In this document: positions 1,630 through 16,181 of the stretch, piece after piece
Layout: every line of letters starts with the position of its first letter
How positions within the stretch are numbered: position 1 is the first letter of the stretch
Source: an uncultured Chloroflexia bacterium
GTDB taxonomy: Bacteria > Chloroflexota > Limnocylindria > Limnocylindrales > CSP1-4
Length of the DNA: 64,000 nucleotides
Direction: 5' to 3'
Assembly (NCBI GenBank): GCA_963788685.1
Contig: CAWBHP010000012.1
Span: 5,574-69,573, forward strand
Position numbers and translations under genes: made by a program
The notes under the pieces: model-generated
Database searches by the model: none
Told to the model about the DNA's origin: nothing
The model's input: the letters and a program-made list of their open reading frames with translations, nothing else

Positions 1630-1848
1630 ATGTCCCGCCGAGCAGACCCGCAACGCCTCGACGAGGCCCGCCGAATCGCTACCCGGAATCGCCTCATGGG
1701 TGCGGGGTTGACCGACGCCAGCGCTGACGCCTTGATGGCCGCATGGGAGGCGCGTGAGCCCCGAGAAATGCGCGAGCGCGGCGGGGCGTACTGGGCCGAG
1801 GCGTGGGAGTGGATTGTGGCGGAACGGAACCCGCCGGGTCCCAGATAA
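1630..1848 (+). CDS. Small hypothetical protein (72 aa)
   Basis: AGGAGG RBS upstream of the ATG; Trp-rich helical ORF; no recognised family. Confidence 0.65.
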   Translation: MSRRADPQRLDEARRIATRNRLMGAGLTDASADALMAAWEAREPREMRERGGAYWAEAWEWIVAERNPPGPR

Positions 1849-1956
1849 GTCGCAGCTAATGGGCCGATAAGCCCCAGCGAAGGGGCGCCCTATAGGTTGC
1901 CGAGCGAGTCCGGACGGTCCAGAAGCGGTTCCAGTGATTCGCAGGAGGCCAAGCCC

Positions 1957-2556
1957 ATGCGTCCCAGGTCACGTTTGCGACTCCTCATGGCGGTCGCCAC
2001 CCTTGCATCTGCGTTGGCCTTGCCACCCGCCGCGAGCGCGGCTGATGGCGAGGTGATCCAGTTGGGCACCAACATCTCGGGCGAGGTGTACATCAACAAC
2101 GGTCGTCCTCGGTTCCACTTCGGCAACGTTGGCAACTGCCCCGGCACGCCCCCTCCGGGGGCGAGCTGCTACGTCGAACTCCAGTTCATTCACCGCTGCG
2201 CCGAGCCGTGGTGCTTCTCGGACGAGGTCTCGGGTTGGTTTCGCGTGCCAGCAGGGCAGGACTGGTTCCAGGCACCGATCTGCGCCGACGGAGGCAACCA
2301 CTGGAAGGTGAACTCTCGTCTCCACTGGACGTTCCCGAGCATCCACACGATCGAGATGTGGGGGCAGACCGAGTGGAATGCCGTTGCCGGTACCTACGGG
2401 CTGATCGCCAAGGCGATCTTCGACGTCAGTCTCCAGGTCGGTCTCAGGATCTCGGGGGGAACGAGAATGAACGTCATCACGGCCTCGAATGCTGTATCCA
2501 GTTACGGGCAAATCGCCGAGTCGTTCGGCTACCCGCAGGGTCCGCCTAGCTGCTGA
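1957..2556 (+). CDS. Secreted Cys-containing hypothetical protein
   Basis: AGGAGG RBS before ATG 1957; signal peptide MRPRSRLRLLMAVATLASALALPPAASA; six Cys in the mature part. Confidence 0.7.
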   Translation: MRPRSRLRLLMAVATLASALALPPAASAADGEVIQLGTNISGEVYINNGRPRFHFGNVGNCPGTPPPGASCYVELQFIHRCAEPWCFSDEVSGWFRVPAGQDWFQAPICADGGNHWKVNSRLHWTFPSIHTIEMWGQTEWNAVAGTYGLIAKAIFDVSLQVGLRISGGTRMNVITASNAVSSYGQIAESFGYPQGPPSC

Positions 2557-2640
2557 CCCGTCCACTCGACGGCGCTCCGGCCCGAGAATGGCCGGGGCGC
2601 CGTTCCCCGACACCCACGCAAAAAAGGGAAGGACGAGCAT

Positions 2641-3177
2641 ATGTCTCATCCGCGGCGCAACCACCTCAGTCCGTGGAGTCTCCTCCCGTTTCTATTCCTT
2701 GTCGCGACCGCAGGTTGCGGCCTCGGCCAGGCTCCAGATGCCGAGCCGTCGCCGAGCTACTGCGACGGTGTCAGCACCGAAGTCGGGGGTTGTGACGCGG
2801 ACCGGCCGACCTTCACGGGTCGGACCTGTTCGGAGGTCGCGAAGGAGTTCGGGCTCCAGCTCGATAGGCGCCTCGTCGAGATCCACACGGGGCCCGACTC
2901 GGCAACGGCGAGCAAGGCGGTGCGAGCGGGCCACTACACGAGCGTCGCCGCCAGCCTCGCGAATCTCCAGCTGAGGCGGGCGGGCCAGATCAAGGAATGC
3001 TCGGCGGGCGCGTTCGTTGATGAGGCAGAATCCGTGTTCTCGAGCGAACTACGCGCACACGCAGGTGAACTGCTGCACGATGGCGACCCCGTCACCTACC
3101 TCGCCTGGCGCAAGACGATCGTCGACATGATGTCCATCATCGACATGGAAGAAGACGCTCCGCTGCCCTCGGCATGA
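2641..3177 (+). CDS. Putative lipoprotein
   Basis: Hydrophobic signal with lipobox-like VATAGC; several Cys; clean 178-aa ORF. Confidence 0.7.
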   Translation: MSHPRRNHLSPWSLLPFLFLVATAGCGLGQAPDAEPSPSYCDGVSTEVGGCDADRPTFTGRTCSEVAKEFGLQLDRRLVEIHTGPDSATASKAVRAGHYTSVAASLANLQLRRAGQIKECSAGAFVDEAESVFSSELRAHAGELLHDGDPVTYLAWRKTIVDMMSIIDMEEDAPLPSA

Positions 3178-3279
3178 CGCCGATTGCGAGCGAGTTCTGC
3201 ACGTTCGCCGGGACCTCAGTGGGTGTGCGGCGCCATGAGCACGAGGTACCTGGGCACCCGGGTCCGGACCCGATCTAGC

Positions 3280-3699
3280 TCACGCGTCGGCCGGAAGCAG
3301 GCGGAACGGCCGGTCGTGCGGGCCGCTGATCGCGCGGAAGTGCCGCTCGTCCAGCGTCAAGACGTCGACGGTCTGGTGTCGGCCTGCCAGGACGACGATC
3401 GACGCATCGGCAAGCCCAAGACCGAGATCGGCGAAGCGGTCGAGAACGTCGGTCGCGCGCGAGACATCGTCGGCGTCGAACGGCGCGAGCTCATATGCCC
3501 CATCGGCGACTTCAGCGAGAAACGAGCGAGCGACGTGCGGAGAAACGTGGCGGGCGAGCAGGTAGTCGAGCTCGGCGAGAACAAAGGGCGAGAGGACGCG
3601 AGGACCGCCGGCCTGCTTCAGCGATGCGGCCGCGGCCCGATGGTGCACTTCGGATGCATCGAGGGCCGCGAGGAGCCCGCTCGTATCCAGCAGGATCAC
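3280..3699 (-). CDS. vapC: PIN-domain toxin (VapC family)
   Basis: N-terminal ILLDTS, LAELDY, LGLADASIV and TLDERHF are PIN-domain motifs; overlaps the upstream antitoxin. Confidence 0.92.
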   Translation of the reverse strand: MILLDTSGLLAALDASEVHHRAAAASLKQAGGPRVLSPFVLAELDYLLARHVSPHVARSFLAEVADGAYELAPFDADDVSRATDVLDRFADLGLGLADASIVVLAGRHQTVDVLTLDERHFRAISGPHDRPFRLLPADA

Positions 3700-3917: not shown

Positions 3918-4062
3918 GCCATACACCGTACCATACGTTTGGATCGACGACATGGCGCGGACGAACTCAGGGTAGGGGAGGATGATGCTCACCGATCGAC
4001 CGACCGGACGGGCCACGTTCGGCAATGCCACGGAGTGCTACAGGGCTGCGTGAGAACACCAG

Positions 4063-4434
4063 ATGCCTGACGACACACGAATTGATCGCTGGTTATGCGC
4101 GGTTCGCCTTGTCAAGACCCGGCCCATGGCGACCCAGCTGTGTGAAGGCGGGCACGTCCGCGTCAACGGCAACCCGGCCAAGCCATCGACAAAGGTTCGT
4201 GCCGGCGACGTCGTGCATGCCCTGATCGCCGAACGTGAGCGCGTCGTCGAGGTCGTGCGGCCGATCGAAACGCGCGTCGGCGCGCCGGCCGCCGCCACGT
4301 GCTACGTCGACAACAGCCCACCGCCGGTGATCCGAGAGATCGCGCCCGGCATCAAGGCGGTCCGTGGGGAGGGCCGGCCGAGCAAGCGTCTTCGCCGCGA
4401 GCTCGAGCGGATTTGGCGGGATGGACGGGGCTGA
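4063..4434 (+). CDS. hslR: S4-domain RNA-binding protein, Hsp15 family
   Basis: RIDRWLCAVRLVKTR...HVRVNGNPAKPS S4 motif and C-terminal GRPSKRLRRELER typical of Hsp15. Confidence 0.9.
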   Translation: MPDDTRIDRWLCAVRLVKTRPMATQLCEGGHVRVNGNPAKPSTKVRAGDVVHALIAERERVVEVVRPIETRVGAPAAATCYVDNSPPPVIREIAPGIKAVRGEGRPSKRLRRELERIWRDGRG

Positions 4435-5006
4435 TGGCACAGTTGCTCTTCATCCAGGGCGGCGGCGCAGGCACGCACGACGAGTGGGACGACAAGCTGG
4501 TCGACAGCCTGCGGCGGGAGCTCGGGGACGGGTACGAGATCCGGTACCCGCGAATGCCCGCCGAGGACGACCCGAGCGACGCAGCATGGGGTCCAGCCAT
4601 CGCGGAAGCGACTGCCGCCCTCGAGGACGGCGCCGTCGTCGTCGGTCATTCGGTGGGCGGGACGCTCCTCATCCAGGCGCTCGCCGAGCGGCCGCCGGGC
4701 GTGAGACTCGCGGCAATCGTGCTGATCGCTGCGCCGTTCGTGGGCGACGGCGGGTGGCCGGGCGAGGAGTTCGAGCTGCCCGACGACCTCGGCGTGCTCC
4801 TGCCGGCCGGGGTCCCGGTCCACGTGTTCCATGGCCTCGAGGACGACGAGGTCCCGCCTGCGCATGCCGACCTGTACGCGCGCGCGATCCCGCAGGCGCA
4901 GGTGCATCGGCTGCCCGGGCGCGATCACCAGCTGGGTAACGACCTGGGGGAGGTGGCGACGCTGATCCGGACGCTCCAGAAGGCCTCTGGCGGAGAGGAG
5001 GACTAG
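4434..5006 (+). CDS. Alpha/beta hydrolase (RBBP9/YdeN-like)
   Basis: GHSVG nucleophile elbow, HGLEDDEV and a C-terminal His (GRDHQ); start overlaps the hslR stop. Confidence 0.85.
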   Translation: MAQLLFIQGGGAGTHDEWDDKLVDSLRRELGDGYEIRYPRMPAEDDPSDAAWGPAIAEATAALEDGAVVVGHSVGGTLLIQALAERPPGVRLAAIVLIAAPFVGDGGWPGEEFELPDDLGVLLPAGVPVHVFHGLEDDEVPPAHADLYARAIPQAQVHRLPGRDHQLGNDLGEVATLIRTLQKASGGEED

Positions 5007-5040: not shown

Positions 5041-6117
5041 TCAGCCCGATGCCTCCGTAACGTCGCGCGGATCCGTCAATCCGAACTCCGTCGTCAGCCG
5101 AGTCGTCGCGGCCCACGAGCCGCGGTCCTGGTTGCAGAGGACGACGATCGTGGTGGCCGCCGCCAGGTGGTGGGCCACCATCGTCGACACGCCCGGATCG
5201 GCGCCACCGTGGCCGAGGATCGTCACGGCGCCGTTCTCCACGACCAGCTCCAGGCCGTAGCCGTACTGCTCGAGGTCGGCCGACGGAGGCGCCTGTGGCG
5301 ACATCATCGCGGCCAGCAGGGGAGGGGAGAGGAGCCGGCCGCCGAGGAGCGCGTCGATCAGCCGCGCGAGATCCTGCGCCGACGTGATCATCCCGCCGTC
5401 GGGCATCCCCCTGGCGGTGAGGCTGAAGATGTTCGACCGCCAGGTGTCGGGCGGACCGTCGGCGTGCAGGTAGCCGTTCGCGTAGCGCCGCGGGTCCTGG
5501 TCGAGCTCCTCGAACGCCGTGTCGACCATGCCGGCCGGCCGAAGGACCTCGTCGGTCGCCACGTCGTAGAACGACCTGCCAGTCGCCGCCTCGATCACGA
5601 GGCCGGCGAGGATGAAGTTCGCGTCGGCATAGACGTATTTCTCGCCGGGCGGCCGCTGCGCGGGCAGGTCGGCGAAGAGGGGCAGCATGTCAGCCGGCAG
5701 CCGGGCCTTGCTCCCTGGGATCCGATCCAGAGCCCCGACGAACGAGTCCCACGTCTGGGCCGCGTCGTCGTGGTAGTTCGGCAGCCCCGAGGTATGCGAC
5801 AGGAGATGGTGGAGCGTGTGCTCGGGAGTCATGGCCTTGGTCCGGTGCTCCGCCGGCAGGACCTCGATCAGCGGCTGGTCGAGTCGGAGCTCCCCGCGAT
5901 CGACAAGCCTGAGCGCGGTCGTCGCGGTGACCATCTTGGTGACCGAGGCGACCCCGAAGCGGGTCTCGCTCGTGATCGGGACCTGGTGGCCTCGGTGCGC
6001 AATGCCGCCGGCGTACTCGAAGAGGGGAGCGCCGGCGGTCCAGACGAGGGCCACGCCGCTGAATTCGTGCGTTTCGACCCGGTGATCGAACCATGAGCGC
6101 AGGGCATCGGGGTCCAT
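5041..6117 (-). CDS. Serine hydrolase, beta-lactamase class C / DD-peptidase family
   Basis: ASVTK (SxxK), LLSHTSG, Y-x-x-x-N region and GHGG motifs. Confidence 0.88.
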   Translation of the reverse strand: MDPDALRSWFDHRVETHEFSGVALVWTAGAPLFEYAGGIAHRGHQVPITSETRFGVASVTKMVTATTALRLVDRGELRLDQPLIEVLPAEHRTKAMTPEHTLHHLLSHTSGLPNYHDDAAQTWDSFVGALDRIPGSKARLPADMLPLFADLPAQRPPGEKYVYADANFILAGLVIEAATGRSFYDVATDEVLRPAGMVDTAFEELDQDPRRYANGYLHADGPPDTWRSNIFSLTARGMPDGGMITSAQDLARLIDALLGGRLLSPPLLAAMMSPQAPPSADLEQYGYGLELVVENGAVTILGHGGADPGVSTMVAHHLAAATTIVVLCNQDRGSWAATTRLTTEFGLTDPRDVTEASG

Positions 6118-6140
6118 CGAGGCATTGTGACGCTCATCGG

Positions 6141-6368
6141 GCGCCGGTGCTTCCTCAGATGATCTGCGCCGGCGGCTGACACGGAGACGAGGGCGCCGCG
6201 ACCCGGGTGATGGCGGCGCTCGATGAAGCCCAGGTCGGTCGCGTCCTCCCAGACCGGCAGGCGCGGGCACGACGTCCGCCACGCCTCCATCGTCTCCAGG
6301 TACGGGCGCTCGCCCGGGCCGATCCACTCGAGGAGGTCGAGGATCAGGTTGTCGACGGTCTCGGACAT
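6141..6368 (-). CDS. Small hypothetical protein (MSETVDNLILDLLEWIG...WRTSCPRLPVWEDA); end uncertain
   Basis: Recognisable small conserved-hypothetical sequence embedded in ORF 5868..6764. No stop separates it from the upstream OGG-like gene, and its frame runs on into the hydrolase. Confidence 0.55.
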
Positions 6369-7263
6369 GGGGTCGCGGGGTCCCGCCCATTGGCCGCCTC
6401 GTGCGTCGGCCATCGATTGGAAGATCAGGTACTCGAGAGCCTCCGGCGACAGTTCGAGCGCGTGGGCCCCGGCGTGCATCTGCTGGAGATAGCCCTCGTA
6501 GATCGGCAGCGACCAGGATGCCGTGGCGAGGTCAGGTCGGCCATTCGTCGCCAGCCACGAACTCACCATTTCATCGTGGATGAGGGCCGACGGACGGGCG
6601 CCGACGGGCTGGCAGAAGGCGATGAACTTCATGCCGAACGCGGGCCCGAGTCCCTTGACACGGCAGTCCTTCGCCAAGCGGCCGTAAGCCGCCGCCGCGC
6701 CCTCGTCGCGCACGGATGTCGCGACAGCGAGGAGATGCGCTCGAGTCGTGGGGAGGGCGATCATCTTCGCCGTGAACGGGGAGGGGCCGTAGCCGACCCA
6801 AGCGAATCCCAGGTCATAGTCGCGATCGAAGGCAGCAGAGCTGACCTCTTCGCCGCGGCGGAACGGGCCGCGATGCGACAGGACGAATGCGCGACGAGAC
6901 GGGCCAGCTGCGATCAGCTTCGATGCTGGGAAACGCGTTCATCCAGCGGTCGCACGGCCAGGCGATGGCGATCTGGTCGGGCCGACCCGTGGTGATCCAG
7001 TGGCGGACCAGATCCTCGAGGGCCCGAGGAGGCGGGATGAGGCCTCCTACGCGGGCGAGACGCCCCTTCAGCAGGGGAGCGCGGGGCCGTCCAGTCCGCT
7101 TACTGTCTGATGCTCGAGGAGGTCGGTCGCCCGAGAGCCAGTCCACGAAACGTCTCGCGTCGCCAACGTAGGTGCTGATCGTGCCCGGGGTTCGCCCCGC
7201 GGCGACCAGTTGGTCCTCGTATTCGATCAGTGCTTGGTCCAGCTCGTCCTTCGTCCAAGTCAC
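6369..7263 (-). pseudogene. OGG-fold (8-oxoguanine glycosylase-like) protein with an N-terminal integrase-SAM-like domain, frameshifted
   Basis: N-terminus TWTKDELDQALIEYEDQLVAAGRTPGTISTYVGDARRFVDWL. After frame changes near 6900-6810 it reads (MTW)GFAWVGYGPS then KGLGPAFGMKFIAF...ALIHDEMV, an HhH-like OGG-fold pattern. Confidence 0.55.
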
Positions 7264-7546
7264 CGCGATCCGCCCAATCTGCGCAGGTCCGCCAGGATGG
7301 CCTCGATGTAGTCGAGTCGCGCGACGCCTCATTGACCTCGCCGCGTCCCGCGCGATCAAGAAGCGGGACGCTCAGCTCGAAGTCGGCCTTCGTCAAGTTT
7401 CGCGGTCGACCGGTCGACTCGGGGATGACCCGAAGCGTGTTACCAAGAGCGACAGCAGTGAAACCGGCCTTTCGGGACCTTGTGTGGAGGCGGGTCGAGG
7501 TCCGATAACGGCTGAGGACATCCGACCACGACGGCTGCAGAGTCAT
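7260..7546 (-). CDS. Hypothetical protein, one frameshift near 7315
   Basis: MTLQPSWSDVLSRY...EVNEASR then YIEAILADLRRLGGSR* in a shifted frame; ATGA and GTGA overlaps with both neighbours. Confidence 0.5.
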
Positions 7547-7762
7547 CGCAGGCGGTACTGGCCGCGCCGACTCGTTTAGGAATCGCTTGCTCGGCGGATA
7601 GGTCGAAGACGATTCCCGGGGTTGTGAGGTCGGCCATCTGGACCGTAATGTCTACCCGCCGCCCGGAAAGCGGGCCTCAACCCAAACCTTGACCTCCCGA
7701 GCTCCAGGCTCGCCGCCAAGAGCTTCCATTGCCTCGCGGATCGCCTCTGCTGCAGTCGTCAT
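7543..7762 (-). pseudogene. Small helical / wHTH-like hypothetical protein, disrupted
   Basis: Manual translation MTTAAEAIREAMEALGGEPGAREVKVWVEARFPG...DITVQMADLTTPGN...TYPPSKRFL.RVGRGQYRLR*, needing frame corrections. Confidence 0.45.
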
Positions 7763-7777
7763 CTCGTCTCCGCGTAG

Positions 7778-8701
7778 TTATCCGAGGAATACCGTGTCTG
7801 CGTGCCACTCGAGCAAGTCGCTCGATGGCGACAGTATCTGCGCGACGGGTGTTCGAATCTCCTGTCCATCAAGCGCTTAGTAGTCGCGGCCGTTCTCAAA
7901 CTCGGCGTGGATCCGCTTGCTTACTCGGACCCGCCATCCGGTGTGACAGTTACGTAGCCACGATCGAACAGCGTGTGAAGGTCCGATCGCAGAAGTAGCC
8001 CGTTGGAGACCTCATGTGGCCCCGCCTGGCCGTATGGCCGTATTGGCTGCTTCAAGCACCGGGAGCGTCCGCTCATTCGTAACGACGCAGCGGCGTTCGT
8101 ACGCGTCGGTGACCATCACCCTGAACGCGCCCTGACCCAGGCGCGGCCGCACCAGACTGGGCGCTCCGTAAGCGGGAGTGGGAACGTCTGATACACCGGG
8201 AAAGGGCGGCGGCCGCATCGCAGCGAGGGCGAATGAAATGCGCTCCCAAAGGACCTGACCTTCTCCGACCGCTAAATCGTAGGACTTACCGCGTGTGAGG
8301 TTCGAAGCCCAGTCTGACGGCGGTTAAATCCAGAGCTCTTCCGGAAGGAAGAAGGGTTCGACAAGGACCGTCGATCCTATCAACGTTAGGTCCGGATCAA
8401 TCTGACGCTCGCTGTATCCCTTGATGCGGTTGACGAACTCGAAGTAGGTAGCCGTCCCATTGTTCTCGCCGAACGTTTCCCAAGCGAACCTCGGCGTGAC
8501 CGTCGTGTGATGAGCAAAGAATCCGCCACCGACAATCCAGCCGCCGCTTCGAACGTGGAACTTAAGGAGCCAAGGGCTGCCAAGCGGCAAGGAGATCGCC
8601 GGCCTCTTGTCGGGCGCCCAGAAATTCACTTCCTCCAGCGGTGCGCGCGACGCGAGGAACTGGAACCACTCGCGGTCCGTGTTTGCGACCCAATACCGCA
8701 C
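7778..8701 (-). pseudogene. HNH endonuclease (putative type IV modification-dependent restriction enzyme), disrupted
   Basis: N-terminus MRYWVANTDREWF...EEVNFWAP; C-terminus RLGQGAFRVMVTDAYERRCVVT...LEAA..PY...HEVSNGLLLRSDLHTLFDRGYVTV...LEWHADTVFLG*. In-frame TAA at 8324-8326 and near 7878, plus a frameshift near 8050. Confidence 0.85.
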
Positions 8702-8781
8702 GAGGGCAGTCTAACGAGCGCAAACACCCATCGCGTACACTCCCAATTGAATCGCCGGGCAATCACAGCCGGGGAGGGAAC

Positions 8782-8946
8782 ATGAGCCGCCGCCGAGGCC
8801 GATCGGGCCGACCGGCAGGCCGTAACAAGCTGATCGAGATCGTTGTTACGCTGGCGTTCCTCGCCCTGCTGATCGCGGTGATCCTGCCTTGGGCCGGACA
8901 GGGTCTTGCTGCAGGGTTCGGCAGCATCATCGAACAGTCACGCTGA
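8782..8946 (+). CDS. Small single-TM protein (54 aa)
   Basis: GGGAGG RBS; basic N-terminus then hydrophobic helix IVVTLAFLALLIAVILPW; 13 bp upstream of the DUF2075 gene. Confidence 0.55.
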   Translation: MSRRRGRSGRPAGRNKLIEIVVTLAFLALLIAVILPWAGQGLAAGFGSIIEQSR

Positions 8947-8959
8947 ACGGCAGCGGACC

Positions 8960-10996
8960 GTGCACCTCTACCAGGGGACCAGCCAGCAGTTCATCGCCGA
9001 TGCGACGCAGGCGCGGCTCGCGAACCAGGTCGCTGAGCGCTTCTTTCACGAATTCCGGTACAAGCCCGGGCCGTCCGAGGTCAGGTCGTGGCAGAACTCC
9101 CTTGGCGCGATGGCGAATGTCCTCCAGCTGGCCGATCTCCGCGACCAGGGGATCCTCGTCGAGCTCAAGCTGCCGCTCTCGTCGAAGCGCCTGGATGTCC
9201 TGATCACGGGGCAGAACCCAACAACCGGCGACGCGGCCGTCGTCGTTGAGCTCAAGCAATGGACCCAGGTCGGCCGATCCAACATCACCGACTGCGTCAC
9301 GATCGAGATGGGCGGCCGCGAGCGGGACCACCTCCACCCGTCGCGCCAGGTCGCCCAATACCAGCGCTACCTGCTCGACACCCACCCGGCGTTCACCGAG
9401 GGCGGCGTCTCGCTCGACGCGTGCGCGTACCTCCACTACGCGACCCACGACCCGTCGTCGCCGCTCTATGGCAAGGACTTCGCGGCACTCCTGGCGACGA
9501 ACCCATCGTTCTCGGGCGACGAGACGGACCAGCTCGCGACCTACCTCGACGATCGCGTCGCCGGCCCGGACGAGGGCGGTGCCATCCTCGATCGGGTCGC
9601 CAACTCGGCCTTCCGCCCGCACAAGCGCCTGCTCGACCACGTCGCGCGAGTCATCCGCAACGAGCCGGTCTTCACGCTCCTCGACGAACAGCAGGTCGCC
9701 TACAACGCGATCATGGATTCGGTCCGATCGGCCGGCCAGAACCAACACAAGGTCGCGTTCATCGTCGCCGGCGGGCCCGGGACCGGGAAGTCGGTCCTCG
9801 CGGTCAACCTCGTCGCGGAACTCGCGTCGCTCGGACTCAGGACGATCCACGTCACCGGCTCGAAGGCGTTCACCGAGAACCTGCGCAAGATCGTCGGCGG
9901 CCGGGCGAGCGTCTTGTTCAAGTACTTCCGCGACACCGCGACCGTCGACGAGCCGATGGACGTCGTCATCCTCGACGAGGCCCACCGGATCCGATCGGTC
10001 AGCACGAGCCGCTTCACGCCGGCGACGGCGCGCACGGGCAAGACCCAGATGGAGGACATCCTCGACTCGACGCGGGTGTCGGTGTTCTTCATCGACGACC
10101 TCCAGGTCGTCCGACCCGGCGAGACCGGCAGCACCGATTCGATCCGCGAGGAGGCCGCCAAGCGCGGCCTCGAGGTCCGCGAGTTCGAGCTCGAGGCGCA
10201 GTTCCGATCGAACGGCTCGGACTCGTTCATCCGCTGGATCGACAACACGCTCGAACTCGATCGGACGCCGCAGGTCCTCTGGCCGATGGACGACGACTTC
10301 GACTTCCGGATCGTCGGCAACGTCCGCGAGCTCGACCAGATGATCCGCGCCAAGGCAGGGGAGGGGGCCACCGCCCGACTCGTCGCCGGCTTCTGCTGGC
10401 CGTGGTCCGACCCCGACGACGTCGGCGAGCTCGTCCCGGACGTCAGGGTAGGGGACTGGTCGATGCCCTGGAACGCGAAGTCGGACGCGCGGAAGCTCGG
10501 GCCCGGGATCCCGAAGTCGGACTTCTGGGCGAGCGCGAAGGAGGGGATCGACCAGGTCGGCTGCGTCTACACCGCGCAGGGCTTCGAGTTCGACTACGTC
10601 GGCGTGATCTTCGGCCCCGACCTCGTCTACCGGCCGATGGATGGGGGATGGGTCGGCCAGCGCGACCAGTCGCACGACCGCGTCGTCCGCAGCGGCGTCA
10701 CCGAGCAGCAGTTCACCGACTTCGTCAAGAGCACCTACCGCGTCCTGCTGACCCGCGGCCTCCGCGGCTGCTACGTCTACTTCATGGACGCGCCAACGCG
10801 GGACTTCTTCCTGAGCCGAATAGAGCGCGCAGCCCCCCGGAACCGGTTAGTCCCGAACACGAGCAACCGTACGGATCGTGAGTCGGCTCGACATCGGCGA
10901 CCTTGCCGACACAGCGCTCCTGAAAGCCGTCTGGAAGCGCCGCTTGCGTCGGCGCCTCAAAACAACTCGATTTCGGGACATGGAGCTAGCCCGTGA
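8960..10996 (+). CDS. DUF2075 (Schlafen group 3-like) PD-(D/E)xK nuclease-helicase fusion
   Basis: N-terminal E..KRLD...VVELKQW nuclease motif, Walker A GGPGTGKS, Walker B VILDEAHR, late motifs YTAQGFEFDY and YRVLLTRG; GTG start at 8960. The true stop may be near 10850. Confidence 0.88.
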   Translation: MHLYQGTSQQFIADATQARLANQVAERFFHEFRYKPGPSEVRSWQNSLGAMANVLQLADLRDQGILVELKLPLSSKRLDVLITGQNPTTGDAAVVVELKQWTQVGRSNITDCVTIEMGGRERDHLHPSRQVAQYQRYLLDTHPAFTEGGVSLDACAYLHYATHDPSSPLYGKDFAALLATNPSFSGDETDQLATYLDDRVAGPDEGGAILDRVANSAFRPHKRLLDHVARVIRNEPVFTLLDEQQVAYNAIMDSVRSAGQNQHKVAFIVAGGPGTGKSVLAVNLVAELASLGLRTIHVTGSKAFTENLRKIVGGRASVLFKYFRDTATVDEPMDVVILDEAHRIRSVSTSRFTPATARTGKTQMEDILDSTRVSVFFIDDLQVVRPGETGSTDSIREEAAKRGLEVREFELEAQFRSNGSDSFIRWIDNTLELDRTPQVLWPMDDDFDFRIVGNVRELDQMIRAKAGEGATARLVAGFCWPWSDPDDVGELVPDVRVGDWSMPWNAKSDARKLGPGIPKSDFWASAKEGIDQVGCVYTAQGFEFDYVGVIFGPDLVYRPMDGGWVGQRDQSHDRVVRSGVTEQQFTDFVKSTYRVLLTRGLRGCYVYFMDAPTRDFFLSRIERAAPRNRLVPNTSNRTDRESARHRRPCRHSAPESRLEAPLASAPQNNSISGHGASP

Positions 10997-12690
10997 CCCA
11001 CTCGAGTACCTAGGCCTTGAACGGGTACTCAATTCAGCGATCGAGGACCTCGTCCAGCAATTGCGTGATGGGTCCTACCGCCCACGGGCTCCAGAGTGGA
11101 TCCGGACGGCCAAGCGGGTGGGCCTAACTCGTCCACTGGCGTTTCTTTCGCCTCGAGATCAATTGGTCTTCAAGACGATCGTTGCATTGGCCGAGAATGA
11201 CCTACTCCTTGGAAGTCCCAAATGGACCCGACTTGGGCGCGCCGACCCCGGGAACGAGGACGACGACACCACGCTAGCTGAGAGTGGTTGGTTTCGATCT
11301 TGGCTCCGCCGCCAGGGCCAGCTTTGGGTCATCGACGAAACGTACGACTGGCTAGTCGAAAGCGATGTATCGAACTTCTTTCCATCAGTTCAGATCCAGG
11401 ATGTCTGCGCGTTCGTCCAGGACAACTCTCGCCTTGGAAATCGGTCTCATTCGCCTCCTTGAATACATGCTTCAGACGTTCTCCCCAATGGCCGCCTACC
11501 GCCCCTCTCGAGTAGGAGGATTACCGCAGGAGGGTTTTGACGTCAGCCGCGTGTTGGCGCACCTCTACCTTCGTCCATTGGACGAAGAGTTCGACTCCGA
11601 GGGTCAGGACGGGCGATACACGCGATGGGTAGACGACATCGCTGTGGGCGCAGATACGTGGGACGAGGCGCTCCGCATTGTCCAACGAATTCAATCGACG
11701 CTCGAAGGAATCGGCCTGTACCCGAACTCCGCTAAGACCCGCATCATTTCAGGTGGCGTATTCAGCCGCGAATACATGAAGTCCGAGAACGATTGGCTTG
11801 GAGAATTTGAAGACACCATCAAGTCCGGTGTACCGGACATCCCGGAATTTGGACGCCGGCTGCGGCGCCACCTCGAACGAGAGGATCGCCCTCGAGCATG
11901 GCCGCGGGTTCTGAGGAGGTACTACACGTATTCCCGACGCCTCAGGCATCCCTACCTTCTTGAAAAGTGGCCCAGCCATATTGATGATTCGCCAGACTCT
12001 GCTCGTTCGATGTTCGACTATCTCGCCACGTACCGCCTAACCGCGGCTCGGTTCAACCGCCTACTTGTCGTGCTCGATCGTTTCGGAACGGTCTACGAGG
12101 ACATTGAAATCCTCGCGCATGAGTACCTTGCGCTCGCTCCGTCGGTCGACTCGGTCCGGATCAACGGGCTGATTGCGGACTGGGCCTACGGGATCGTCGA
12201 ACGCGAGGCCGTACCCAGGCCGAGGATCGCCGCGGCGGCTTGCGTCACGCTCGGAAAGTTCGCAGATGGCCCTCGCCTGGATCAGCTCGCCCGGCTGTAT
12301 GGCAGGTGGAAGCGCGATACCGTTCTTAGAACTCAAACTGCAACGATCCTTCTAGCGGCCGGGCGAATTGATATGGCAGAGGTAACCCGCCTTCTCGGCC
12401 GATCGCAACTCGAGACCATCGAGAATCTTGAGTTCCTCATTGCCGTCGCCGGCGGCGAAAAGCAAGCCGTAGGCATGGCGCTGTCCGCCATGGAACCGGT
12501 CAAGAAGTACGGCCCGGATCGGGTCATGACCAAGCCGCGACTTATGTTCCTTGCGCCGTTGCTTAGAGCATCCGCACCTAGCCAATGGACAGCTATTTCT
12601 GGCCGATGGAAGAGGTCGCTTGGATCTAACCCGGACGGGCTTCGCGACCATGTTGCTGAGCGATGGTTATTCGGAGATTGGCCCTCGTGA
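10878..12690 (+). CDS. Reverse transcriptase of the UG/Abi (defence-associated) type with a helical C-terminal domain; one frameshift near 11440
   Basis: ORFs 10878..11462 and 11365..12690 join to about 600 aa with RT motifs KRVGLTRPL, SDVSNFFPSV (motif A), GLPQEGFDVSRVLAHLYL (motif B), YTRWVDD (motif C) and GLYPNSAKT; no intron maturase or HNH domain; about 300-aa helical tail. Confidence 0.88.
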
Positions 12691-12727
12691 CGCTTCAATG
12701 CGTGCGGCGATGGTTAGGGTGGGGAAG

Positions 12728-13918
12728 ATGGACCTAGAGGAGGCGCTCGAGCAGTTCGATCTCACCGCGGCGAACCTGTCGCGGTTAGAGGAGGTCTGGT
12801 CGGAGCTGGAGGGCCTAATCCCGACCGGAATCGCGTTCCTTGACGCCGGTCCGGAAGGGCGTCGCTATCGAGAGTTGACACGAGCCTATAGCGAGATCGC
12901 AAGCGCACTGCCTGCAATCTCAGGCTACCGAGTTGAGGTGACTCCGATGGAACTCAACGCGATCGGCCATGCCCGGCTTGACGCGGCGGAGCTAGGAGAG
13001 CCGTGGATCGAAGTGTCTCTAGAAGAGGACATTTACGGCCCGTCGAAGGCGATCGAGGAGTACCGCTTCCGGTTTGAGCGCGCCCGTCGCGATCTTGTGC
13101 GTGACCACGTGTCACGACTGTCCTCCGAGGTCGCCCAACACCTCGCGGAGTTGGCTGACGCCTACCCCTCGGATGGGATAAAGATTGAAGACCCTCGTAT
13201 CGCAAGCGTGAGGGGGGCGATTCGCCAAGTCGAGCGCCTTGCGGGCGACCAGGTCCCACGGACCAAGGCGTGGTCTGATCTCCTCCGGCACCTCGGATTC
13301 CACGAGGGCCAGGACATTCACGCCATGGCAACGGTCGATTGGCCAAGCGTGAGTGCTGACCTCGCGAGGGCGCTCTACACGGAGCTTGAGCCGCTACCCG
13401 TTGCCACCAGAGACCTTGATGACGTGCTTCGATCGAAGCCCCAAGGAAGCGTCTCGATCGACCTGCAATGGGCTGATCTCTCTCCTGACGACTTTGAGCG
13501 CGTCATCTTCAACCTCATCAGTGCGGCGGATGACTATGAGAACGCCCAGTGGTTGACGCCAACGAATGCCCCCGATCGCGGGCGTGACCTCGCGGCCGAG
13601 CACGTGCGGAGCGACACGCTCAGCGGCCCATCGCGCGAGCGCGTAATCGTGCAGGCACGCCACTGGTTGCAGAAGTCGGTCGGGCTTCCTCAAGTTCGAC
13701 AGCTCCTTGATCAGATGAAGTTATGGGAGCCTCCTCCCGTGCACACGCTGGTCATCGCGACCAGCGGACGGTTCACGACAGATGCCGTCTCGTGGATCGA
13801 GCGACACAACAATGCCGATGACCGACCGGTAATTGTCATGTGGCCGAACAGTCACCTAGAGACCTTGGTCGCGAGACGCCCTGAGCTGTCGGCGCTGTTC
13901 CCGCGTCGCAACCGGTAG
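12728..13918 (+). CDS. Mrr-like (Mrr_cat) restriction endonuclease with a long helical N-terminal domain
   Basis: C-terminal WADLSPDDFERVIFNL...PDRGRDL...IVQARHW...LVIATSGRFTTDA...MWPNSHLE matches the Mrr catalytic domain layout. Confidence 0.85.
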   Translation: MDLEEALEQFDLTAANLSRLEEVWSELEGLIPTGIAFLDAGPEGRRYRELTRAYSEIASALPAISGYRVEVTPMELNAIGHARLDAAELGEPWIEVSLEEDIYGPSKAIEEYRFRFERARRDLVRDHVSRLSSEVAQHLAELADAYPSDGIKIEDPRIASVRGAIRQVERLAGDQVPRTKAWSDLLRHLGFHEGQDIHAMATVDWPSVSADLARALYTELEPLPVATRDLDDVLRSKPQGSVSIDLQWADLSPDDFERVIFNLISAADDYENAQWLTPTNAPDRGRDLAAEHVRSDTLSGPSRERVIVQARHWLQKSVGLPQVRQLLDQMKLWEPPPVHTLVIATSGRFTTDAVSWIERHNNADDRPVIVMWPNSHLETLVARRPELSALFPRRNR

Positions 13919-13925
13919 CCCGGCG

Positions 13926-13955
13926 GGCAGACGCAACTAACGGGCATCCGGTAGC
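13926..13955 (-). repeat. Highly degenerate copy of the dif-like site
   Basis: GGCAGACGCAACTAACG-GGCATCCGGTAGC aligns with 14064-14094 at 24 of 31 positions with one gap. Confidence 0.45.
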
Positions 13956-14063
13956 CGTGGACCGGCCTCGTCGAGCCAGCATCCAATCGCAGGATCCGTC
14001 CGCTGGGAAGGCTTCGACGGCCGGGCCCGACAGACCTTGAGGCACATCCACTCACGTGTGCGT

Positions 14064-14094
14064 GGCAGACATAACTCACGCGGCAACCGGAAGT
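14064..14094 (-). repeat. Degenerate dif-like (Xer) site: XerD-type arm and spacer kept, XerC-type arm altered
   Basis: GGCAGACATAA CTCACG CGGCAACCGGAAGT versus TGCAGACATAA CTCACC TTATCGGAAGT at 15134. Confidence 0.65.
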
Positions 14095-14114
14095 AGGCGG
14101 CCAGAACGACTGAT

Positions 14115-14266
14115 GCCCGCACGTGCTGCGGGGACAGCAGCCCACGCCGGTCGTCCGGTCGTCCGAGAGACCGCGCCCGGCATCAAAGGCCGTCCGTGGC
14201 GAGGGCCGGCCGCGCAAGCGTCTTCGCAGCGAACTCAAGCGAATGTCTCGAGCGCGAGCGGGCTGA
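14115..14266 (+). pseudogene. Degenerate second copy of the 3' end of hslR
   Basis: Aligns with about 4290-4434 (CGCGCCCGGCATCAA, GAGGGCCGGCCG.GCAAGCGTCTTCGC, same GGCTGA stop); has an 8-bp internal duplication and a 1-bp insertion. Confidence 0.8.
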
Positions 14267-14342
14267 TGCTGATCGGTCGTGCCGAAGTCCCGCCTGAGAG
14301 TGCCGCGTGCCAAGGCCGGGAGCGCTGTGTATCGTGCACCGC

Positions 14343-15040
14343 GTGCCAGATCAGAAGCAGGCCACGCTGAATTGAGAGGGCGTTGTCCGTGCTGTCATCG
14401 CGTTCGTGGCGTTTGTGTTTGGTGTCTGGGCCTACGACCTAGTCGGGCCGATTGCAGGGACGCTCTCGCCGCTCATTCAGGCCGCGATCGTGACCGCGAT
14501 CGGGGCGACGGTGGCCGCTCTCGCGGCCCGGTATGCCGTCGTCAAAGCGTCGCAGCTCGCCGCCGCCGAGTCCCGCGAGGACCGACAACAAGCGCGCGAA
14601 GATCATTCGCGGACCGGGTGGCTAAGGTCGCGGCGAGACTGATGAATGCGGGCTTCGACCTCGCCGCGGCCGTGCAAGGGCACCTGGCCGATTGGCGGGA
14701 TGGGGAGCCCCACCTGACCGAAGTGCCTTCGATGGAAACCATCCGCCGCCTGGTGTTCGAACTTCGAATGATCGTTCGCACTGAGCGCACGTACCAAGCC
14801 GTCGTCGCCTACTCGCAGATGCTGTACGACGTTGCTGAATTCGACCACGATGCGGACGCCGGGCCGTCGCTCGACAAACCACGGCATGACGCCGTCCGGC
14901 TCGTGCGCGCGGTCTGGGAGCTGATCCGGGCCCGAAATGGATTCGCGGACCAGTTGAAGCGCAAGCCGTATCCCGCTGACATCGACGCGCGATGGGAAAT
15001 GACAACGGATCGTCTCCAGGAGGGCCCTAGTCGAGCTAGA
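14343..15040 (+). pseudogene. Membrane-anchored hypothetical protein, disrupted
   Basis: GTG start, in-frame TGA near 14373, two TM helices (VIAFVAFVFGVWAY; LIQAAIVTAIGATVAAL), a frameshift near 14610, then a helical domain in ORF 14279..15163; end uncertain. Confidence 0.45.
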
Positions 15041-15133
15041 GGACGCCGTGCGCGCCGAAACCAACCGGTCCAGGCTGCCGCGCGACCAGGCCGACTAGCC
15101 GAGAACGGCCCAAACGGGTCCACAGTTCGGCAT

Positions 15134-15161
15134 TGCAGACATAACTCACCTTATCGGAAGT
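15134..15161 (-). other. dif-like XerCD recombination site (candidate chromosome dimer-resolution site)
   Basis: The minus strand reads ACTTCCGATAA GGTGAG TTATGTCTGCA: 11-6-11 layout with ATAA/TTAT inner ends. The left arm resembles Bacillus dif ACTTCC...AA and the right arm starts with the conserved TTATGT. Confidence 0.75.
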
Positions 15162-15245
15162 GATATCGCAAGGGTGAGATAGCTGGAAACGCCCCGGTGC
15201 GCATGACGCGCTGTAACGAGCCCGCCCCGGATGCGTCTCCAGGTC

Positions 15246-16181
15246 ATGCGTCCTCGATCCGCGATCTCGATCCTGATCCTGATCTCCGTCGTCGCCCTCG
15301 GAGCGTGCGCGAGCCCGGCCCAGGGCGACATCGAGCGCGGCCAGGAGCTGCTCGGCGCGAACAAGCGTGAGGAAGCCTTCGCCGCGTTCGACGCCGCCGT
15401 CGCTCTCGACCCCCAGAACGCTGTCGCATTCGCCGGGCGTGGCTGCTCCAGGCCCTTGCCGGACACAGTGGCGGCGATCTCCGACCTGGACCGGGCAATC
15501 CAACTCGACCCGACGAGTGCCGACGCCTATCGCTGTCGTGCAGAAGCGCACCGTGCTGCCGGGGACCGCGTGGCCGCGCTCGCGGACGCGCGGCAGGCTC
15601 TCGACCTCGGACCATCCCATGCATACACGCACGTCACGCTCGGGAATGTCCTCGACGACCTGGGTCGAACGGCCGAGGCCATCGTGGAATACGACAAGGC
15701 GATCGAGCTCGAACCGACGCTGGCCAACGTCTACAACCAGCGAAGCATCGCCCGCAACCGACTCGGTGACGAAGCCGGCGCCGCGGCCGATGTCGACAAG
15801 GCGATCGAGCTCGATCCCGACTATGGCCCGGCGTACGCCGTCCGAGCGATGTCGTCGGTCTTCGACGGCGACTGCACGAGTGCGCTCGCAGATGCCGAGA
15901 AGGCGATCGCGCTCGATCCCGAGTTCCCGAGCGGGTACGGCGCTCGCGCCATCTGTCGGAGCGAGGCGGGCGACCTGGACGGAGCGCTGGCCGACGCGGA
16001 CCAGGCGATTGCCCTTGGCCGGATCGACGCCTTCGCCTACTTGGTTCGCGGCGTGGTCCGGGCCGACCGCGGCGACGAGGACGAGGCCCGCGCCGACCTC
16101 CTCCGTGCGATCGACCTGGCACCGACAGCCGAGTTTGTCGCCGAGGTCCGCACGATGATGGCCGAGTACGGCCTCGACTGA
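15246..16181 (+). CDS. TPR-repeat lipoprotein
   Basis: Lipobox ALGAC; many TPR units (A..D...AI.LDP...AY..R). Confidence 0.9.
   Translation: MRPRSAISILILISVVALGACASPAQGDIERGQELLGANKREEAFAAFDAAVALDPQNAVAFAGRGCSRPLPDTVAAISDLDRAIQLDPTSADAYRCRAEAHRAAGDRVAALADARQALDLGPSHAYTHVTLGNVLDDLGRTAEAIVEYDKAIELEPTLANVYNQRSIARNRLGDEAGAAADVDKAIELDPDYGPAYAVRAMSSVFDGDCTSALADAEKAIALDPEFPSGYGARAICRSEAGDLDGALADADQAIALGRIDAFAYLVRGVVRADRGDEDEARADLLRAIDLAPTAEFVAEVRTMMAEYGLD

Follow-up and report, generated by a model that had tools for sequence, protein, structure and literature searches.

Class 1 UG/Abi reverse transcriptases (RTs) are defined by a layout in which an RT domain is joined to an alphaRep domain (Mestre et al., 2022, PMC9226505), and those that have been studied (AbiK, Abi-P2, AbiA, DRT4, DRT3b and DRT7) synthesize DNA without a nucleic-acid template (PMC9508834; PMC12783706; PMC13174585). 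Several of these enzymes use a protein tyrosine as primer and form trimers or hexamers (PMC9508834; PMC12783706; PMC13174585). DRT4 is a single-gene system that makes random single-stranded DNA without a template (PMC12783706), and DRT3b is protein-primed and protein-templated, making poly(dCdA) from a priming residue, Y666, that lies far from the N-terminus (PMC13174585). Here we analyse an RT gene at positions 10878-12690 on the forward strand of a 64,000-nucleotide stretch, referred to throughout as the window, from the genome of an uncultured Chloroflexia bacterium (GCA_963788685.1, contig CAWBHP010000012.1). We propose, at a probability of about 0.6, that this locus encodes a Class 1 UG/Abi RT of the UG13a group, that the tryptophan in its catalytic motif is a trait of that group, that a break in its reading frame is likely to be an artefact and that the intact enzyme would, by analogy, carry out untemplated synthesis.

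The open reading frame (ORF) list and the translation of the window show that these 1813 nt are not a single ORF. The original prediction had treated them as one RT reading frame, crossing the break unnoticed; there are two frames, both on the forward strand. Piece 1 (10878-11462, frame 0, 194 amino acids) begins at a GTG start codon, encodes the fingers and motif A (DVSNFFPSV, 11364-11390) and ends at a TGA at 11460-11462, and piece 2 (11440-12690, frame +1, open from 11356) encodes motifs B to E and the helical tail, with its stop codon at 12688-12690. Both pieces match the PADLOC profile RT_UG13a, piece 1 over profile positions 12-182 (E = 7.7e-35) and piece 2 over positions 192-570 of 589 (E = 6.7e-57), and are therefore parts of a single gene that is broken around profile position 185. 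Piece 1 is 87% identical to residues 1-188 of an intact relative, P0001, and the catalytic aspartate triad (the D of motif A and the DD of motif C) is intact in the window pieces. Much else in the original prediction held when re-examined: motif C is RYTRWVDD (11614-11637; its Trp is encoded by TGG at 11626-11628), motif B is GLPQEGFDVSR (11518-11550) and departs from the usual QG in that Q is kept and E replaces the canonical G, and an alphaRep-like helical domain of approximately 310 amino acids follows motifs D and E from about position 11750. RVT_1 was the sole domain that Pfam found in the RT; maturase (X), HNH/endonuclease, TIR and nitrilase domains were absent from it by Pfam, as had been predicted. 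The upstream ORF adjoins the RT start with no intergenic space, also in line with the prediction, and a search of positions 6000-16000 against Rfam gave no match at E <= 1 to a non-coding RNA (ncRNA), whether retron msr/msd or intron RNA.

Assignment to an Abi/UG-type group, rather than to retron or group II RTs, had been part of the same prediction and is borne out by RT_UG13a being the best full-length profile. Intact P0001 matches it at 8e-97, covering positions 12-574 of the 589 in the profile, with UG21 as runner-up at 1e-37. Among the PADLOC matches listed, the best non-UG RT profiles reached E values of 1e-9 or weaker and there were no Abi profiles. This is a large family: 385 clusters at 50% identity pass E <= 1e-30. 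The window branch scores 324 bits against 680-755 bits for core UG13a members on the same full-length profile, less than half, so it probably represents a divergent branch of UG13a or a sister group; core loci (L055-L075) are 20-25% identical to it. In a maximum-likelihood tree the window RT groups with P0001, P0002, P0003 and P0005 (support 100/99), while P0024 falls in another clade. Intact members that are 33-34% identical occur in Nonomuraea glycinis CGMCC 4.7430 (L018, which matches RT_UG13a at 5.6e-141) and Arthrobacter sp. 49Tsu3.1M3 (L019), both of them RYMDD variants. No close relatives were found on annotated phages or plasmids, where the best plasmid matches were RTs of other kinds with 24% identity.

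An AlphaFold2 model of P0001, built from a 33-sequence alignment, is consistent with this assignment. The model (pLDDT 89.5, pTM 0.89) consists of a fingers-palm RT to approximately residue 292, followed over residues 293-599 by helices only, except for one short hairpin, so that the helical tail of the original prediction is retained and the predicted fold carries the HEAT-like tail of Class 1. The comparison of structures that the prediction had called for also came out in its favour: Foldseek searches of the PDB with the full-length model retrieved AbiK (E 5e-9, 600-667 columns), DRT6, DRT4/UG15, Abi-P2 and AbiA. With the RT core alone, the resemblance was to group II intron, G2L4 and diversity-generating retroelement (DGR) RTs, with template-modelling (TM) scores to target of 0.5-0.7.

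The Trp at the Y position of the YxDD motif had been singled out as a special feature of the window gene, with the proviso that it might be a read error or unique to this sequence. Alignment of homologues shows that it is neither: the 163 representatives in which both motifs are present include 100 with W at this position, 30 with Y and 19 with F, and 53 have WMDD and 44 WVDD. In core UG13a loci L055-L075 FTRWMDDIV is invariant, although the sequence pattern used admitted W or Y only, and the neighbouring groups UG19 and UG20 have RYVDD. Judged from these alignments, Trp is a hallmark of an already named group and not a peculiarity of the window gene; within the library searched, no paper on reverse transcriptases was found to mention WVDD or WMDD. 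As W alternates with Y and F within the divergent branch, the three probably fill an equivalent aromatic role. The non-canonical motif B, GLPQ-E in the window branch, is likewise a group-wide trait; the four core members that were scanned or aligned have GLPT-x-N, in which even the canonical Q has gone. In human immunodeficiency virus type 1 RT, G152, which follows the Gln of motif B, packs against the templating base, and the end of the primer is contacted by Y183 of YMDD. One lead is that an acidic residue or Thr in motif B, combined with Trp in motif C, would be compatible with an active site that has ceased to accommodate a template-primer duplex.

Residues invariant in both UG13a branches (P0001 numbering) are K79, R85, D94, D164, L216, P217, A228, H229, L232, D236, R250, D253, D254, L281, N284, K287, N305, R348, Y382, K461, P541 and L559. 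Y382, in the helical domain, is the sole Tyr among them, and the equivalent codon in the window, from the invariant columns of the alignment, is at 12019-12021. Perhaps this residue serves as the priming tyrosine, although that is speculation.

By analogy with the Class 1 enzymes that have been studied, UG13a is likely to act in phage defence by synthesizing DNA without a template, possibly from a protein primer. An intact UG13a protein would oligomerize as those enzymes do. Phage infection would lead to untemplated DNA synthesis, probably primed from a tyrosine of the protein itself, with the helical domain, which takes the place of a thumb, guiding the DNA product, and would end in abortive infection or growth arrest. 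Some of the data weigh against this reading. UG13a is among the groups for which a defence role was rated inconclusive (Mestre et al., 2022, PMC9226505). The N-terminal loop in which AbiK and Abi-P2 prime holds no conserved Tyr in our alignments, with none before residue 67, and the column of window Y44 is occupied by E, W, L or H in relatives. By sequence profile, the RT core matches group II intron RTs (7e-18) far better than it does AbiK (4e-4, palm only) or UG15 (2e-3). This last point, together with the presence of G2L4, DGR and GsI-IIC RTs among the top fold matches, could indicate a templated enzyme that copies a host, phage or unrecognized ncRNA in the manner of Class 2 DRTs or group II-like RTs. 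We regard such an enzyme as improbable, given that an RT with an alphaRep-like tail is the typical Class 1 architecture, that motif B lacks the canonical Q-G and the core group lacks Q as well, that Rfam gave no match and operonic loci leave no intergenic room upstream, and that the Class 1 enzymes studied are all untemplated. A more elaborate form of untemplated synthesis, in which UG13a makes sequence-defined or otherwise unusual DNA, with Trp and the acidic or Thr residue of motif B selecting nucleotides and, in the window subclade, the product acting together with the translationally coupled Nhi-like helicase, would be a long shot.

The genetic neighbourhood bears on whether the RT would act alone. 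Directly upstream of the RT is a helicase gene of the SLFN-g3/DUF2075 (Nhi-like) type (8960-10996, forward strand; Pfam SLFN-g3_helicase 2e-85; PADLOC PDC-S41, Nhi and AbiO). The helicase is intact over approximately 630 amino acids, and residues 1-630 are 93% identical to the helicase of L001, the closest locus with an intact RT. In the helicase tail (10850-10881, forward strand), DNA alignments show one base fewer at approximately 10853 than in L001 and in L007, a related locus on a 14.7-kb contig from another sample; as a result the TGA at 10879-10881 is missed and the helicase ORF extends 119 nt into the RT gene. The two L001 genes share the four bases GTGA (L001 4188-4191), which hold both the stop codon of the helicase and the start codon of the RT. 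Downstream of the window RT is a gene for a 406-amino-acid protein with a C-terminal restriction-endonuclease domain, Mrr_cat (12698-13918, forward strand; Pfam 5e-11). When the ORFs flanking 19 family loci were clustered all-against-all, the helicase alone recurred. It or a remnant of it is upstream of the RT at seven independent loci besides L007: the window, L001 and L011 each have the whole gene; in L006 a complete helicase (1737-3559) lies 2.3 kb upstream and a copy of its 3' end (5627-5956) abuts the RT, with small ORFs between; L023 and L116 retain a 3' fragment only (residues 501-639, 77% identity); and L118 has the first 40 codons. We note that the 3' end of the helicase seems to travel with the RT in L006, L023 and L116. 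Within the window's RT clade, four of five members are accompanied by the helicase or what is left of it, and the pairing looks ancestral in this one subclade.

It could be that the helicase, the RT and the Mrr-like nuclease work as a single defence system of three genes, with the RT product either controlling the other two enzymes or being processed by them. The GTGA overlap in L001, the recurrence of the helicase across independent loci and within the window's clade, and an Mrr-like gene 3' of the RT in L011 as well would all fit such a system. We nevertheless think it unlikely. Most members of the family stand alone: the helicase is absent from L002, L004, L010, L012, L014, L115 and L117 and from 20/20 metagenome family loci. 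Defence by a single gene is also known for Nhi-like DUF2075 proteins (bioRxiv 10.1101/776245). The gene downstream of the RT varies between Mrr-like (window, L011), TIR (L001), UDG (L004) and none, and the Mrr-like protein was rejected as a conserved partner because tblastn found one in the window, L007 and L011 only. Moreover, the helicase has been eroded repeatedly while the RT stayed intact (L006, L116 and L118), which argues that the RT is probably self-sufficient, with the helicase as a partner or neighbour in certain lineages.

The break in the RT gene lies at GGA AAT CGG (11436-11444, forward strand), where protein and DNA alignments both show one extra base relative to intact relatives. 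The window reads CGC CTT GGA AAT CGG TCT at this junction, and intact relatives have ...FVQDNSRLG[IV]GLIRLLEYML... in the protein alignment. Against L001, the DNA alignment puts the additional base of the window within 11430-11444, and its simplest placement appears to be the A-run at 11438-11440. Conserved sequence flanks the break directly on both sides and there is no further lesion in 600 codons. The homologues (n = 62) are mostly 599-625 amino acids long and intact, the three closest being 79, 73 and 70% identical; a single ORF of approximately 590-600 amino acids is what UG13a would lead one to expect, and the window copy has two frames instead.

We consider it more likely, at about 60:40, that this break is a consensus error of a noisy metagenome-assembled genome (MAG) than that it is a real mutation. 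The MAG (3.36 Mb, 16 contigs, 64% complete) and the contig_N/MFD...bin assembly series to which it belongs are probably long-read assemblies. To count frame jumps, 1087 long ORFs were compared with their own genome by tblastn and same-strand jumps with continuity of the query were scored; mapping of coding frames in the window from G+C content at third codon positions was too noisy for counting frame breaks. There were 153 jumps in 574 kb of paralogue-covered sequence, approximately 1 per 3.7 kb, on all contigs. The RT break is of the one-extra-base type, which makes up 134/153 of the jumps, with one base missing at the other 19/153. The bias towards an extra base is strong. The genome-wide jumps had no codon, k-mer or homopolymer context in common, and CGG was not in excess at the 134 sites. 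Elsewhere in the assembly, C8:1-9658 and C14:185436-195053 are copies of a 9.7-kb region with 91% identity, 756 mismatches and 91 single-base gaps, which may represent a second strain in the bin or a noisy duplicate assembly. Family loci from the contig_N series are often broken, L007 into 3 RT pieces, L011 into 3 and L023 into 4 segments in three frames, whereas the RT is in one piece in 19/20 of the other metagenome family loci.

Other observations count against an artefact and would fit a real and recent pseudogene, formed by the one-base insertion in the RT and the one-base loss in the helicase tail within a decaying island. L007 is 100% identical to window positions 11037-14354, so that a locus from a separate sample carries the same extra base within 3.3 kb of perfect identity. 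The break sits in a run of three A only, with no long homopolymer. In the sister genome G005 the syntenic copy (L023) has several frame changes, in-frame stops and only a remnant of the helicase, and the in-frame stops indicate that real decay does happen in this lineage; an HNH-like gene near the window RT also seems split. A pseudogene is possible on this evidence, although we do not favour it. Noise at the rate given above would carry an approximately 40% chance of a break in a 1.8-kb gene, and the extra base in the RT is what most of the genome-wide jumps show; conserved sequence abuts it on either side with no second lesion; and the terminal branch of the window RT (0.14) is not longer than that of its intact sister P0001 (0.15).

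Decoding of the break, by programmed +1 frameshifting or by a four-base codon (CGGT = Gly) at AAT CGG TCT, strikes us as very improbable. Reading CGGT as one step yields SRLGNGLIRLLEYML, which aligns to relatives without a gap, and a +1 step is what the 134 extra-base sites would require, but there is no slippery motif. Both specific forms that were tried were rejected. A general rule of CGGN=G would ruin the gene at 16 in-frame CGG codons, the first of which is a conserved Arg at codon 3, and the 134 genome-wide +1 sites have no excess of CGG or of any other codon or k-mer. Were a +1 shift programmed to take place at the stop codon, other residues would stand where relatives have the conserved IGLIRLL.

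A separate feature of L007 is that its helicase part is approximately 10% divergent from the window, with many indels. At window positions 11036/11037 the comparison changes abruptly, from this ~10% divergence, which spans the helicase and RT codons 1-53, to a 3.3-kb stretch of 100% identity that comprises the remaining RT and the Mrr-like gene. The switch looks like a recombination breakpoint within the RT gene.

The RT locus lies in an accessory island of approximately 9.8 kb, each side of which is marked by a copy of the 3' end of an S4-domain (hslR-like) gene. The left repeat (4324-4436, forward strand) is the 3' end of the S4-domain gene itself (4054-4434; Pfam S4 1.3e-15), and the right repeat (14155-14268, forward strand) is a decayed copy with 81-91% identity; both belong to repeat families D1 and D9. 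A 20-nt repeat, GC(G/A)T(G/T)GCAGACATAACTCAC, occurs twice to the right, at 14060-14079 and 15130-15149. Inside the island, on the reverse strand, are an ORF with an OGG-like 8-oxoguanine glycosylase domain (5868-6764; Pfam PF21790, 5e-20) and the HNH-like gene (8012-8701), which is present as two ORFs (8324-8701 and 8012-8218) with a weak PADLOC HNH match (1.6e-4). L007 differs from the window in this gene by one base at 8522, possibly a further frame break. The neighbours of related RTs include NERD, TIR, HNH, HEPN/MNT, type I restriction-modification, MmeI, SIR2, Macro and Mrr genes, and the RT is carried by 2/37 genomes of the same genus.

This analysis adds to what was known of UG13a in several respects. 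The group-wide Trp at YxDD and the loss of Q-G from motif B provide a signature for UG13a, the defence-gene surroundings of the relatives and their patchy distribution support a putative defence role, and an Nhi-like helicase appears to be linked ancestrally to one subclade. As the window gene is frame-broken and its assembly noisy, this copy is unsuitable as a reference sequence; the cultured carriers N. glycinis CGMCC 4.7430 and Arthrobacter sp. 49Tsu3.1M3 make UG13a testable.

Compared with known systems, the window RT shares a fingers-palm core with the RTs of group II introns and G2L4 (profile E 7e-18; TM to target 0.5-0.7). Unlike a group II intron RT, it has no maturase/X or endonuclease domain by Pfam and no intron RNA by Rfam over 6000-16000, and carries a helical tail of 310 amino acids in their place. 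It differs from retron RTs in having no Rfam match, an upstream ORF that abuts the RT start and, among the PADLOC matches listed, weak matches to non-UG RT profiles. With DRT4 (UG15) and DRT3b (UG8) it has the Class 1 architecture in common but belongs to a different UG group, and the partners of DRT3b, a second RT and an ncRNA, were not seen at the window locus. AbiK, Abi-P2 and AbiA (PDB 7r06, 7r08 and 8oz7) are similar to it in size, in full-length fold, with an RT that lacks a canonical thumb and is joined to a helical domain, and in the logic of a single-gene defence, although identity is approximately 11-12% and sequence similarity is confined to the palm (AbiK E 4e-4). AbiA differs further in its HEPN domain, which the window RT lacks, and the priming residues of AbiK (Tyr44) and Abi-P2 (Tyr61) lie in a loop between fingers helices alpha2 and alpha3 where the window family has no conserved Tyr. 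UG13a is the closest of the described groups, providing the best full-length profile, a length of approximately 600 amino acids, the RT with helical tail and the R-W-[MV]-D-D form of motif C. From the UG13a core the window branch is set apart by its 20-25% identity, by GLPQ-E in place of GLPT-x-N in motif B and by partial reversion of the Trp to Y or F, and the window gene is thus best seen as a divergent addition to this named, uncharacterized group.

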